The notes: generated by a model from the letters alone, not told the origin. Numbered from the stretch's first letter, positions 11,249 to 14,653 are shown. The stretch: DNA of 32,000 nt from Candidatus Heimdallarchaeota archaeon (GCA_030668875.1 DAOVER010000011.1:47426-79425); one strand, 5' to 3'. Translations and numbers: made by a program.

Positions 11249-11399
11249 TCTTTTAGGTGGATATCTGAAGCAAGGAAGGAAGATGAGTAACCATTTATTT
11301 TTCAATTGAAGTTTCATCTTTTCAAAATATATCAATCCTACTTTAATTTTTTAAAGGATAACCTATTCATATATCTGAAAAAAAAGGAAATTGATTATT

Positions 11400-11759
11400 A
11401 TGAAAAATAAGAAATTACTAACTGGCATAAGTTTTCTAGCTCTACTAGTTTTAGCTACACAGCTTTCAATGATTGGATATGCTGATGAGACAGTAATTGT
11501 AAGAGATTTCGACAGAGATCGAGACCAATATCAAGATGGTACATGTGAAGATCCAAATGAAAATAATTACAATAGTACAATTGTTCCCCCCGAAACAAAT
11601 AACGGAAATGATACATGTATCCCCCCTGGAGATGGAGATCAGATAAGAGAAAGAGATCGTATTAGAGATCAAATTCAAGATGGAACATGTAATTGTACTT
11701 GTATTTGTGAACAAGATGGAATTCAAGAACAACTTCAATTACAAGATGGAAATTGCTAA
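11400..11759 (+). CDS. Small secreted Cys-rich protein with DRDR/QDGxC repeats
   Basis: MKNKK plus hydrophobic signal-peptide-like segment, four QDG motifs, seven Cys and a T-rich tract downstream. ATG 11400 is preferred over TTG 11391. Confidence 0.72.
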   Translation: MKNKKLLTGISFLALLVLATQLSMIGYADETVIVRDFDRDRDQYQDGTCEDPNENNYNSTIVPPETNNGNDTCIPPGDGDQIRERDRIRDQIQDGTCNCTCICEQDGIQEQLQLQDGNC

Positions 11760-11807: not shown

Positions 11808-13151
11808 TCAGAGATAATCTATCAAGTTTCTCATGTTATCCAAAGTTTCCAGGCCTTTTGTTGTCAGTTCATAGTGTTTTCTTGTAACTTCCATCTCACT
11901 AGGTACAATCATTCCTTTTTCTTCTAATTCTGTTAAATGCTGATAAATTGATTGAAGAGATTGATTTTTACCTAAAGAAATCCAAATTGAATAACCATAA
12001 TCAGCTTTCTTTCCAGCAATGAGATTGAGGATTTCAAACTTTGTAGTAGAGCTTTCTGATAATCCCCAAACAACTTTCTTCTTTCCTCTTAATCTAGCTG
12101 CGTAAACGTTAAGTGTACTTAATCCAGAACCAGACAGGATAGCAACACTAGATTTTGAATCTATTATTCCTTCTTGAATGAGATTTTTAGCAGCAACTAA
12201 TACTGATGCTGAGGCTGGTTCAATAAACAGTCCTTCATTTTTAGCTAAAATTAAAGCTTCATCTAACATAGACTCGGCGTCGATTTCTATTTCATTCCCA
12301 TTTGTTTTTTGAATTATCTTTTTCACTTCTTCCAGAAGAAATACCTTTGTAATCTCTAATGATTCTGCTAAATGAGCTACTTTTGTTTTTTCTAATGAAA
12401 CAGCATAAATCTTTGGATATTCTTCAATCCATCCTGAGGCAATAGCATCTTCTAAACCTCGAAAAATGGAATAGATTAAAGATCCTGACCCTCTTGGCAC
12501 TATTATGCTGTCTATAGTGTCTTTCTGTAAAACTATTTCTAGACCAATTGTTTTCTGACCTTCAATAGTTAGAAGATTATTATCTGGAGATGCGTGATAT
12601 ACTTTGTTATCTTGTGCTAGTGTGGAAGAATATTCAATTGCTTCGTCAACTGATTCACCTTTTTCAATAATCTGACTGCCATATATTTTGATTTGTTCAA
12701 TTTTGGAAAGTTCAAGATTTTGTGGGATAACACTTATAGAATCGATTTTAGCTTTTGCAGCATAAGCTGCTAAACTAATACTAAAAGCCCCAGTACTTGC
12801 ACCAACAATAGTTTGTGATTTGTTTTGATATGCATCTGAAACTAATAAAGAACTTGCTCTATCTCGAAAAGAACCAGTAGGATTCCTGAAATCGAGTTTC
12901 AAGCTTAAATCTTGATAATCAGCTATGTTCTTGACAGGCAATAGTGGAGTATTGCCCTCAAAAAGTGAAATTGGTTTGGAAAAATCAGGAAGAAAAGAAT
13001 GTAAAGACCACATTGAGGATAGTTTGACATCACTAAATGATGGTCCACTAATTGGAGGAATGGCAACTAACCCTTTGCAGTTTGAACACCTTAGTTGTGG
13101 ACCTTTGAAAGTTTTTCTACAATCATTACAAGTCGGTTGATTCTTCCACAT
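11808..13151 (-). CDS. Threonine-synthase-fold (PLP fold type II) protein lacking the Schiff-base Lys, with N-terminal Zn ribbon and C-terminal PadR-like winged HTH
   Basis: CNDC...CSNC, EGNTPL, NPTGSFRDR (K to R), ASTG, EGQKTI and EPASA motifs. C-terminal KFEILNLI...YGYSIW...SIYQHLTELEEKGMI...YELT wHTH pattern. ATG 13151 is preferred over TTG 13160. Confidence 0.85.
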   Translation of the reverse strand: MWKNQPTCNDCRKTFKGPQLRCSNCKGLVAIPPISGPSFSDVKLSSMWSLHSFLPDFSKPISLFEGNTPLLPVKNIADYQDLSLKLDFRNPTGSFRDRASSLLVSDAYQNKSQTIVGASTGAFSISLAAYAAKAKIDSISVIPQNLELSKIEQIKIYGSQIIEKGESVDEAIEYSSTLAQDNKVYHASPDNNLLTIEGQKTIGLEIVLQKDTIDSIIVPRGSGSLIYSIFRGLEDAIASGWIEEYPKIYAVSLEKTKVAHLAESLEITKVFLLEEVKKIIQKTNGNEIEIDAESMLDEALILAKNEGLFIEPASASVLVAAKNLIQEGIIDSKSSVAILSGSGLSTLNVYAARLRGKKKVVWGLSESSTTKFEILNLIAGKKADYGYSIWISLGKNQSLQSIYQHLTELEEKGMIVPSEMEVTRKHYELTTKGLETLDNMRNLIDYL

Positions 13152-13190
13152 TATTACCAACGATTAGCACGATAAAATATAATGTTATTG

Positions 13191-13388
13191 CTATACAGAC
13201 AGTGCCATAGGTTCCTCATTTTTATCAATTTCAATATCGCAAGAACATAATTCATCCATAACTTCTTCAATTTGGAAGGAAAGAGGATCCTTGAATTCAA
13301 GAAAGTAATTCATATTCTGTTTTGATAAGAAATCAACCAGCTTAACCAACAATTGCTTTTCTTTTGGAGATTGAACAACTATCCGCAT
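13191..13388 (-). CDS. Small hypothetical protein (65 aa)
   Basis: ATG start, fills the intergenic gap, same strand and 30-40 nt upstream of the ThrC-like gene. No recognised motif. Confidence 0.55.
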   Translation of the reverse strand: MRIVVQSPKEKQLLVKLVDFLSKQNMNYFLEFKDPLSFQIEEVMDELCSCDIEIDKNEEPMALSV

Positions 13389-13482: not shown

Positions 13483-13929
13483 ATGATTCAAGCTATTTAC
13501 ATTATCTCAAGAAATGGTGTTCCTATTCACTTCAAGGAACTTCTGGAAGAAGAAGATAATGTAACTAAAGCTACACTATTTACAGGAATTATATCAGCAA
13601 TTCAAACTGTTTTAAGAGAGATTGATGCAGGTGATGCGAATTACTTCACAACAGCAACTCATGAAATCTTTCTTGAAGTAACAAATGATTTTGCAGTTGC
13701 TCTTGTCACAGAAGTTGATGAAGACTCTGATAAACAGTCAATGAATACTTTGATGTCAGAAATTATAACAGAAATAACTTTTCAATTTGAAGAAATACCC
13801 GAGATTGGTTTCTTAATTCAGGAAGATCAAAGTAAAATTGAGGGAATTGTTGATAGAAATTTAGCTAAATGGGAGAGCAGAAAAGAAGAGGGAAGTGCAA
13901 CAAAGAAATTAAAAGATGCCTTATGGTGA
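13483..13929 (+). CDS. Longin/roadblock-like domain protein
   Basis: MIQAIYIISRNGVPI (beta-beta), TLFTGIISAIQTVLREI (helix), then beta strands, a longin-like pattern common in Asgard archaea. Alternative starts at 13462 and 13435. Confidence 0.7.
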   Translation: MIQAIYIISRNGVPIHFKELLEEEDNVTKATLFTGIISAIQTVLREIDAGDANYFTTATHEIFLEVTNDFAVALVTEVDEDSDKQSMNTLMSEIITEITFQFEEIPEIGFLIQEDQSKIEGIVDRNLAKWESRKEEGSATKKLKDALW

Positions 13930-13933
13930 TAAT

Positions 13934-14653
13934 ATGTTTGAACAGAATGGAATTCCAGTTTTAGCCTTGATAATTGAACCACTAGTTGCAGTAGGTATGC
14001 TAATACTAGCAGTAAGTGGTTTTATGAAATATAGAGAGAAAAAGAGACAACCAACATTATTCCTCACTCTTAGCTTTGTTTTCTACGCATTAGCAATTGC
14101 AAGTAGTGGAATAGGAAAATGGTTACAGTTCTTTGTAAATGTACCTTCAGAGGATATATTCTTCGCAGATGGAACTATTCTAATAGCATATTGTTTGACT
14201 GCAATAGCAACAGTTTTTCTTATGATATTTGTGGATTTAGTATTCTTAGAAGTAGGACCCTGGTTTGTTGCTTTAGTTGGCATAATAAATGGTATCACAG
14301 TAGGAATGATGATCACTAAATTAAACTTCTCAAGTGAAGCTTATGATGAAGCACTAAATATTGTTATATTTCATGCACTAGTCACACTAGCTTTGGTTTT
14401 ACTTCTAGCTATTTTATCTTTTAGAGAAGCTCAACAGAATAAAGAGAGATTACCTAAAATGGGCTTTACATTCATAGGACTCTATGGTTTATTCGTGAGC
14501 ATGGTATTTGTGCTATTTGCAGTGGATATTGCCTTAGGAGGCGGATATTCAGCGTTTTATTATCTTGCATGGGTATCAGCAGGTTTAGGTTCACTATTTG
14601 GATACGTTGGATATATTATGCCCGATTGGTTTAAAAAACTTCTAAAGATTTAA
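13934..14653 (+). CDS. Stand-alone seven-transmembrane protein
   Basis: Seven hydrophobic segments and a short amphipathic tail MPDWFKKLLKI. GGTGA SD overlaps the longin stop, supporting ATG 13934. Confidence 0.75.
   Translation: MFEQNGIPVLALIIEPLVAVGMLILAVSGFMKYREKKRQPTLFLTLSFVFYALAIASSGIGKWLQFFVNVPSEDIFFADGTILIAYCLTAIATVFLMIFVDLVFLEVGPWFVALVGIINGITVGMMITKLNFSSEAYDEALNIVIFHALVTLALVLLLAILSFREAQQNKERLPKMGFTFIGLYGLFVSMVFVLFAVDIALGGGYSAFYYLAWVSAGLGSLFGYVGYIMPDWFKKLLKI

Follow-up and report, generated by a model that had tools for sequence, protein, structure and literature searches.

A translationally coupled gene pair for a longin-fold protein and a seven-helix membrane protein, conserved in Heimdallarchaeia

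Layout of the locus and translational coupling

The window analysed here is a 32,000-nucleotide stretch of DNA from a Candidatus Heimdallarchaeota archaeon (GCA_030668875.1, DAOVER010000011.1:47426-79425), with positions counted from its first letter. It lies on contig C23 of a 3.2-Mb assembly of 99 contigs that is 92% complete, referred to below as G000. The plus strand carries two adjacent genes that we call A and B. Gene A (13483 to 13929; ATG at 13483, stop TGA at 13927-13929) encodes a soluble protein of 148 residues with a predicted longin fold. Gene B (13934 to 14653; stop TAA at 14651-14653) encodes a 239-residue membrane protein with seven predicted helices, a predicted N-out/C-in orientation, and a fold that resembles that of G protein-coupled receptors (GPCRs). 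The named sources of homologues of both proteins include Candidatus Heimdallarchaeaceae archaeon and Heimdallarchaeota archaeon. Asgard archaea are credited with a set of eukaryote-like proteins that includes longins and, more recently, GPCR-like seven-transmembrane (7TM) proteins; the partners of these proteins are almost all unknown. Heimdallarchaeia is thought to be the class closest to eukaryotes.

The two genes meet at a very short junction. A Shine-Dalgarno sequence for gene B, GGTGA (13925-13929), is formed by the last two bases of the final Trp codon (TGG) of gene A and its stop codon TGA, and is followed by four nucleotides (taat) and then by the ATG of gene B at 13934. Among the 2363 open reading frames (ORFs) of at least 150 residues in G000, GGTGA occurs 137 times within positions -18 to -1 of the start and 11 times within positions -60 to -43, which is a genome-wide enrichment of about 12-fold just upstream of starts. 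The commonest position at which GGTG begins in this genome is -9 (72 cases), and the A-B junction has the same spacing. An in-frame ATG at 13916 also lies upstream of gene B; 10 of 17 aligned B sequences, that of the window included, start at the Met corresponding to 13934. Among relatives, a junction that reads tggTGA, 4-7 nt, ATG was found in 22 of 45 distinct A-B pairs, and the remaining pairs have a TAA or TAG stop for A plus a separate GGAG or GGTG box.

An earlier reading of this DNA by a model (the first-pass annotation) had placed the TGA of the longin gene inside a GGTGA Shine-Dalgarno sequence, 4 nt before the ATG of the 7TM gene. The coordinates were reproduced and, because GGTGA acts as a ribosome-binding signal throughout the genome and stands at the modal spacing here, the observation is confirmed as written. 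A and B are made from one translationally coupled operon. A scan for sigma-70 promoters and intrinsic terminators returned 11 promoter-like sites (9.0 expected) and no terminators, a result that is uninformative for an archaeon.

Predicted folds of the two proteins

The AlphaFold2 (AF2) model of A, built with 23 sequences, has a predicted local distance difference test (pLDDT) score of 79.6 and a predicted template-modelling (pTM) score of 0.75. Its elements follow the order b-b-a-b-b-b-a-a, with DSSP assigning strands to residues 2-9, 14-19, 52-56, 60-66, and 70-77 and helices to residues 26-44, 84-101, and 113-147. Longins have been described by this order, with a five-stranded sheet, no N-terminal helix, and two C-terminal helices (PMC10933270). 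The model of A likewise begins with a strand and has the second C-terminal helix. The first 16 rows returned by VIA-align contain nothing but longin domains (Z 14.0-11.7), the best being that of VAMP7 (Z 14.0, root-mean-square deviation [rmsd] 2.3 A over 117 residues). The best rows in Foldseek are AP2 sigma, zeta-COP, Ykt6, VAMP7, and Sec22b (E 3e-5 to 1e-3), with TM-scores normalised to the query of up to 0.62. Structures of the Roadblock, MglB, and LAMTOR type match at Z 9-10 in VIA-align, only over residues 1 to about 105.

Sequence families are less telling. The Pfam longin family (PF13774) is not listed for A at E <= 1, and Sybindin (PF04099) stays below threshold in Pfam (14.2 bits against a cut-off of 25, E 0.047). 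The model and its structural matches therefore support A as a longin by fold, not by the Pfam longin profile. The first-pass annotation had made its reading depend on the soluble protein having such a fold, and the AF2 topology, Foldseek, and VIA-align all returned it. We also considered a Roadblock/LC7 protein (PF03259) and rejected it: Robl_LC7 stays below its cut-off (20.9 against 23 bits), and the model opens with a strand where roadblock proteins have an N-terminal helix.

Protein A ends in a short tail (A139-W148, ATKKLKDALW; codons at 13897 to 13926) whose last residue is an invariant Trp. Across the 23 aligned A sequences, A139, K141, K142, and W148 are invariant. These ten residues have low pLDDT in the model, and the tail is placed outside the longin core because structural alignments to longin domains mostly end at model residues 131-138. 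Every paired A homologue listed has an [L/F/I]W C terminus; most read KDALW or SDSFW, and members of genus g14 end in KLKDSGLW. Six distant upstream ORFs of the class have D-[A/S]-(G)-[L/F]-W at or near the end, five of them ending at the Trp and one (L073) adding RV. The Trp codon contributes to the Shine-Dalgarno sequence in the window, and this nucleotide constraint is unlikely to be the whole reason for the Trp, because the residue is kept in A proteins with TAA or TAG stops and separate Shine-Dalgarno boxes, in solo paralogues, and in A-like proteins that face away from B. Two genes directly upstream of B that do not encode small longins have products whose ends recall this tail. One encodes a 578-residue alpha/beta-hydrolase ending in ..EKLEESGLWE (L067, G065 C1, 1233-2969), and the other a 478-residue protein without a Pfam match ending in ..SELSYSIW (L068, G122 C181, 1511-2947).

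The AF2 model of B (132 sequences) has a pLDDT of 97.1 and a pTM of 0.92. Its helices span residues 9-36, 39-67, 77-105, 109-128, 141-168, 172-200, and 207-228, followed by a short helix at 231-236. Twelve Lys and Arg residues lie on the side of loops 1, 3, and 5 and the C-terminal tail, and two lie on the other side; the predicted topology is N-out/C-in because of this distribution (12 inside, 2 outside). All of the top 50 Foldseek rows are GPCRs, with weak scores (best E 3.3e-3, query-normalised TM-score [TMq] 0.58). In VIA-align the GABA-B receptor leads with Z 15.9 (rmsd 4.0 A over 221 residues), a modest margin over rank 50, which still reaches 11.6. It is accompanied by GPR156 (14.8) and mGlu1 (13.6), where a Z of about 13 can reflect the common arrangement of helical bundles. 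Further rows include de novo designs of a ‘GPCR-like fold’ (14.6), the ceramidase ACER3 (12.7), the rhodopsin KR2 (12.2), and LYCHOS (11.8). Since helical bundles easily reach such values, we describe the modelled B as a GPCR-type fold with class C nearest, and not as a member of the GPCRs. The likeness is one of fold only, comprising seven helices plus a short helix 8 in an N-out/C-in orientation.

Sequence searches with B gave little that can be named. None of the 7tm Pfam families appeared at E <= 1, and no Pfam family reached its curated cut-off. NCBIfam and Pfam together returned only sub-threshold noise, with no transporter or enzyme family match. In a profile search of the PDB the best match (E 0.0055) was a transmembrane fragment of a nicotinic receptor, which we take to be compositional, and the best GPCR had an E value of 0.17. 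Matches in the ESM Atlas are confined to unnamed clusters dominated by Asgard sequences. HisKA_7TM (PF16927) is not listed for B at E <= 1 in Pfam; the nearest named ESM Atlas cluster has PF16927 in 10% of its members (score 0.85), which is a lead only.

Two other 7TM folds were tried and rejected. Microbial rhodopsins carry a conserved Lys in helix 7 for retinal. The basic positions of B that are conserved above 50% are only 32, 36, 37, and 175, and none is in transmembrane helix 7 (TM7); B is thus without a retinal site, the fold match to KR2 (Z 12.2) notwithstanding. The 7TM hydrolases of the PAQR and alkaline ceramidase families have a conserved metal site of His, Asp, and Ser residues. 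B has no conserved set of His residues (H147 reaches only 38%), despite the fold match to ACER3 (Z 12.7). The first-pass annotation had named HisKA_7TM, GPCR-like, and rhodopsin folds as candidates for this protein. The GPCR-like fold is the one that Foldseek and VIA-align place first; the missing TM7 Lys speaks against a rhodopsin, and HisKA_7TM has no Pfam match at E <= 1.

Conservation in B is concentrated on the side predicted to face the cytoplasm. Mean relative entropy is 1.46 for the inner third with the inner loops, compared with 1.01 for the outer and 1.04 for the middle part. The conserved residues of the cytoplasmic third are K32, Y33, R36, and K37; F99 and F104; K175 and G177; and Y224, G226, P230, and W232. 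The most conserved block is the end of TM7 with helix 8 (Y224-I239, YVGYIMPDWFKKLLKI; 14603 to 14650), in which Y224 is kept in 88%, G226 in 95%, P230 in 100%, and W232 in 82% of the 132 sequences. Polar residues are also conserved in the outer half, namely E15 (61%), D198 (76%), and Y205 (63%), along with W213 (90%).

A profile search against a library of 1.84 billion representatives placed 334 clusters in the B family. Among the best 150 of these, nearly all are stand-alone proteins of about 235-290 residues, besides some short fragments. The exceptions are P0128 (398 residues), in which B is followed by a second, partial B in one chain, and P0155 (384 residues), which has a C-terminal extension of about 130 residues of unassigned kind. 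With its seven helices, the short helix at 231-236, no Pfam family, and relatives that almost all stand alone, B is as it had been described at first, a 7TM protein that lacks a kinase or other output domain.

Conservation, fusion, and neighbourhood of the pair

We examined the 30 top-scoring loci for B, the same number for A, and 40 picked by hand, a sample that is neither a census nor random. They supplied 80 B ORFs out of nearly 400 B matches, after B ORFs shorter than 200 residues or with E > 1e-10 and copies with identical last 150 residues had been dropped. In the phylum, 184 of 399 genomes have a match to the B profile, as do 25 of the 29 other genomes in the window’s own family. Within the class, an A-like gene on the same strand heads the operon for 56 of 66 B ORFs, and contig ends cut off three of the 66. 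In total, 41 genomes of families f1, f4, f5, and f7 contribute 45 distinct A-B pairs. A search with a single peptide pattern found 13 related loci, all in Asgard metagenome-assembled genomes, and is too narrow to prove restriction to Asgard archaea.

The operon takes several forms. Genus g17 has the order A-B-B. In genera g2 and g3 (L072, L073, L091, L094), a Trp-tailed A of 163-166 residues (cut by a contig end in L094) is followed by a protein of 212-216 residues with six or seven transmembrane helices and then by B; the intervening protein shows no clear relation to B (hhalign 8.6%). The distant upstream ORFs of the class have no Pfam match, yet they align to A end to end (hhalign 76%, E 2e-5). 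The genes flanking A-B vary from lineage to lineage, and the conserved unit is thus limited to A-B or A-B-B.

Beyond the class, Trp is the last residue of 4 of the 28 proteins encoded immediately next to B, compared with 35 of 3140 ORFs in the window’s genome. Three of these four are longin-like proteins of 137 residues ending in KALW, KAFW, or EAVW, whose Pfam matches are all sub-threshold (Fuz_longin_1 at E 3e-5 and 1e-4, Longin at 0.019). At one locus in another Asgard class (L079, G004 C1, 14-3806), the next gene downstream of B, also on its strand, encodes a 137-residue Trp-tailed longin-like protein. About 1.3 kb beyond that pair lies a gene for a 433-residue Arrestin_N protein (E 5.5e-16) with zinc-ribbon/RING motifs, an arrangement seen at this single locus. 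At another locus (L071, G126 C11, 3047-6658), B faces a divergent 137-residue Trp-tailed longin-like gene, which is followed by genes for a haloacid dehalogenase (HAD) hydrolase and a 458-residue WD40 beta-propeller protein.

Four genomes (G015, G016, G022, and G038) have two A-B pairs each. The trees of A and B have 31 of 42 splits in common and their patristic distances correlate with r = 0.92, values that are inflated by the relatedness of the genomes. The second pairs form a clade in both trees (Shimodaira-Hasegawa-like approximate likelihood ratio test [SH-aLRT] support 93 for A and 99 for B). As judged from these sequences, the pair is duplicated as a unit.

Proteins that join a 7TM bundle to a longin-like domain in one chain are also present. 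A screen of the window’s genome found five proteins of 362-397 residues in which seven predicted helices precede a soluble tail of about 150 residues. One is on contig C39 (41305-42498), two are in tandem on C4 (8779-9918 and 9969-11057), and the others are on C40 (82324-83421) and C97 (4072-5199). The tail of the C39 family (33 sequences) matches the start of A with hhalign 89% (E 2e-6 over 46 columns), compared with 0.1% for crossed controls, and matches a wider A profile with 79% over 99 columns. The terminal Trp is absent from all five proteins. The tails of the four fusions other than that on C39 appear longin-like by eye and in weak profile hits. A-like domains also occur in other longer proteins: two proteins of 350-353 residues (L052 in G080 C1 and L054 in G085 C123) match the A profile over about 137 N-terminal residues (E 1e-38). 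The remainder of each has no Pfam match and no Trp end, and both lie about 32 kb from an A-B-B operon on the same contigs.

The first-pass annotation had likened the pair loosely to a receptor and a guanine nucleotide exchange factor (GEF), and the neighbourhoods were examined for a possible GTPase. No small GTPase of the Ras, Arf, Rab, Rag, or MglA type is found among 140 neighbouring proteins from 32 loci (82 and 58 proteins from 21 and 11 loci; E <= 1e-5 and 1e-6), and a G-alpha-like gene is likewise absent from these 140. Their sole GTPase is the ribosome GTPase RsgA. Other matches to A, namely 699-residue tetratricopeptide repeat (TPR) proteins, 165-residue Fuz_longin-like proteins, and the 350-residue forms in G080 and G085, have no GTPase domain either. 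There is no neighbouring small GTPase, so the GEF-like idea is without support. With no GTPase among the neighbours or in the A-like proteins, what this part of the reading draws on is thus the function of eukaryotic longins only. Asgard GTPase regulators are reported to sit rarely in operons, for which reason their partners are hard to match (PMC10933270). Elsewhere in G000 (L004, contig C69, 872-1800, minus strand), a canonical 100-residue roadblock gene lies directly upstream of one for a 188-residue protein with a P-loop. Judging by eye from this motif, the latter may be a small GTPase, and the two genes an MglB/MglA-like pair.

No third component is universal. An ORF of 65 residues (13191-13388, minus strand) that is transcribed away from A occurs at every first-pair locus (47-92% identity), those without B included. 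It matches no Pfam or NCBIfam family and is absent from second-pair and class-level loci, and an ORF of 74 residues is found only near the second pair of the genus. Next to the 65-residue ORF in the window (11808-13160, minus strand) is a gene for a 450-residue protein with a Cys-rich N terminus, in which a PALP pyridoxal phosphate (PLP)-dependent enzyme domain (E 3e-54) is fused to a C-terminal PadR/winged-helix domain (E 5e-6); this enzyme-regulator fusion is 59-89% identical at syntenic loci. A 122-residue ORF (11391-11759, plus strand) has an N-terminal hydrophobic stretch and repeated acidic motifs that bear Cys (..DRDRDQYQDGTC.. and ..RDRIRDQIQDGTC..), and it may encode a small secreted or metal-binding protein.

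Interpretation and known systems

The operon is real and conserved, and it is a variation on known Asgard themes. Binding between A and B is likely, and the pair is likely to combine a membrane receptor or scaffold with an adaptor; receptor and GTPase functions are only putative. Our assessment leans slightly toward A and B being two subunits of one membrane complex. In such a complex, A would dock on the conserved cytoplasmic face of B, formed by the ends of TM1, TM3, TM6, and TM7 with helix 8, and its tail (K-x-K-[D/E]-[A/S]-[L/F]-W-COOH) would probably make the contact. Where the two parts are fused, as in the relatives encoded in G000, the covalent connection between TM7 and the longin domain would serve in place of tail docking. 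The Trp tail would then be a tether in the split, two-gene form, with which the absence of Trp from the fusions fits. Such a complex would bring a longin platform to the membrane and subject it to control by any ligand or stimulus that B recognises with its outer half, with sensing by B suggested by the modelled fold. A small GTPase as the downstream partner would be a guess from eukaryotic longin precedent that nothing in this analysis supports. From the proposal of a membrane receptor with a longin adaptor, the longin fold, the stand-alone GPCR-type 7TM protein, and the conserved, coupled pair stand, and the GTPase/GEF part does not.

Several observations weigh against A and B acting as one complex. 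Within the class, 5 of 66 B ORFs follow an unrelated gene and two have no gene upstream on the same strand, although one of the two is in fact the second B in a tandem. In other Asgard classes none of 14 B loci has an A-like gene upstream on the same strand, and B is mostly alone. Synteny across Asgard archaea, which had been suggested as a check on the pair, therefore holds for Heimdallarchaeia (56 of 66 B ORFs, with co-duplication) and not for the other classes. The first pairs form a clade (support 87) in the tree of A but not in that of B. In the window’s genome there is one B for two Trp-tailed A proteins, and the second A (L003, contig C56, 17345-17791, 30% identical) has no adjacent B. 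The 7TM part of the C39-family fusion aligns with B in register, but with hhalign 13.7% the two are not demonstrably homologous.

Loss of B points the same way. Six sister genomes of the genus (G034, G026, G028, G018, G024, and G033; loci L035, L036, and L039-L042) keep an intact A at the syntenic locus, where the order is PLP enzyme, the 65-residue ORF, A, and acyl-CoA synthetase, while B has decayed. Its remnants are the first codons after tggTGA, with the ATG altered in at least two loci, and, at two of the six loci, C-terminal stretches of 20 and 35 residues that lie ahead of the gene for acyl-CoA synthetase. Five of these genomes have B matches elsewhere (a second pair in four), and in G024, which is 88% complete, no B was found anywhere.

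One alternative is that A and B are co-expressed without binding, with the basic amphipathic, Trp-ended tail taking A to the membrane or to another partner and B working independently in the same process. Trp-tailed A proteins without an adjacent B (the paralogue L003, L050, and the six syntenic loci that have lost B) are in keeping with this, as is B without A at most loci of the other Asgard classes. Interfacial helices are often basic and carry hydrophobic residues and Trp, and KKLKDALW is basic with two hydrophobic residues and a Trp. However, this explanation leaves open why the pair has remained adjacent, coupled, and co-duplicated although every flanking gene has changed, and why relatives fuse a 7TM bundle directly to an A-like longin, and we regard it as fairly unlikely.

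Two further explanations give B or A another job. B could be a small transporter, channel, or membrane enzyme of the 7TM superfold with A as its cytoplasmic regulator. ACER3 (Z 12.7) and the sodium-pump rhodopsin KR2 (Z 12.2) score not far below the GPCRs, and the conserved outer-half residues E15, D198, Y205, and W213 would suit such a role. However, the absence of a TM7 Lys and of a conserved His set (H147 at 38%), the lack of any transporter or enzyme family in Pfam or NCBIfam, and a conservation that is strongest on the cytoplasmic face and not along a central pathway make this quite unlikely. Alternatively, A might be a biogenesis or targeting factor that B needs only during insertion or sorting, and not a stable subunit. 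The SRX domain of the signal recognition particle (SRP) receptor, a longin fold that serves in targeting, is in the fold list of A (Z 10.0-10.7), and translational coupling would deliver A where B is made. Yet A outlives the loss of B in six genomes, a solo A paralogue persists, and the fused 7TM-longin proteins imply a permanent association, which together leave this explanation with very little probability.

A more specific form of the complex is that B is an archaeal GPCR-fold receptor and A its transducer. By analogy with the C terminus of G-alpha, the Trp-ended helix of A would enter a cavity of B between TM3, TM6, and TM7-helix 8 in a state-dependent manner. We consider this form unlikely as it stands. 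If it were true, Heimdallarchaeia would already couple a 7TM receptor to an adaptor fold that eukaryotes use to control small GTPases, and the A-B-B operons of genus g17 would point to receptors that work as heterodimers, as class C GPCRs do.

What makes the locus useful is that it offers a small, defined pair (148 and 239 residues) with a candidate contact motif in the Trp-ended tail and a conserved cytoplasmic face. If A and B bind, they would be a minimal model of a 7TM protein that recruits a longin platform, and would be relevant to how receptor-adaptor coupling and membrane-bound longin/roadblock scaffolds arose. Otherwise the locus remains a well-defined, conserved operon made up of two families without a name. 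Earlier work has made Asgard longins well known, and its main text makes no mention of 7TM, GPCR, receptor, or transmembrane (10.1101/2020.10.19.343400). A preprint of October 2026 describes Asgard ‘7TM proteins’ and ‘a class C GPCR’ structural cluster (10.64898/2026.10.28.762692). In the literature searched, no description of a longin-7TM operon or of the Trp tail was found.

Among known systems, eukaryotic longins (VAMP7, Sec22b, and Ykt6; the sigma and mu adaptins and zeta-COP; and sedlin and synbindin of TRAPP) have the same element order as A and are its best PDB matches (Z 14.0-12.5, rmsd 2.0-3.1 A over 111-127 residues, 4-14% identity). Unlike them, A is a free-standing protein of 148 residues with a Trp-ended tail, and lacks a SNARE motif; neither coat nor TRAPP partners are encoded nearby. 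With the domains of class C GPCRs (GABA-B, GPR156, mGlu, and taste receptors), the modelled B shares seven helices, a short helix 8, and the N-out/C-in orientation. It differs in having no sequence relation to them and no extracellular domain, and their margin over other 7TM folds is small. We know of no G protein in these archaea.

The G-alpha subunit offers a parallel for the tail. Its extreme C terminus, with a free carboxylate, an acidic residue a few positions upstream of the terminus, and a hydrophobic or aromatic last residue, meets TM5-TM7 and helix 8 of an active GPCR (PMC3268021). For A the likeness is an analogy of design only, as A is a longin and not a GTPase. The KLKDSGLW tails of genus g14 resemble the end of Gi/transducin, ..KDCGLF; this concerns a few residues in one subclade and is a lead, not evidence.

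MglB/Roadblock-MglA pairs involve the same superfamily of small alpha/beta platform proteins as A, but A lacks their N-terminal helix and has a 7TM protein, not a GTPase, as its neighbour. LYCHOS (GPR155) with GATOR1, and Ragulator/LAMTOR, are alike in outline, since a GPCR-type bundle or a membrane anchor holds longin or roadblock proteins at a membrane. These systems act at the lysosome on Rag GTPases through large multi-subunit GTPase-activating proteins, whereas A and B are two small proteins with no GTPase in the neighbourhood. Closest to home are the fused 7TM-longin proteins of G000. They differ from the pair in being covalent, in running from 7TM to longin, and in having no Trp-ended tail, and the tail alignment to A concerns the C39 family only. 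What they have in common with A and B together is a seven-helix bundle combined with a cytoplasmic longin-like domain.

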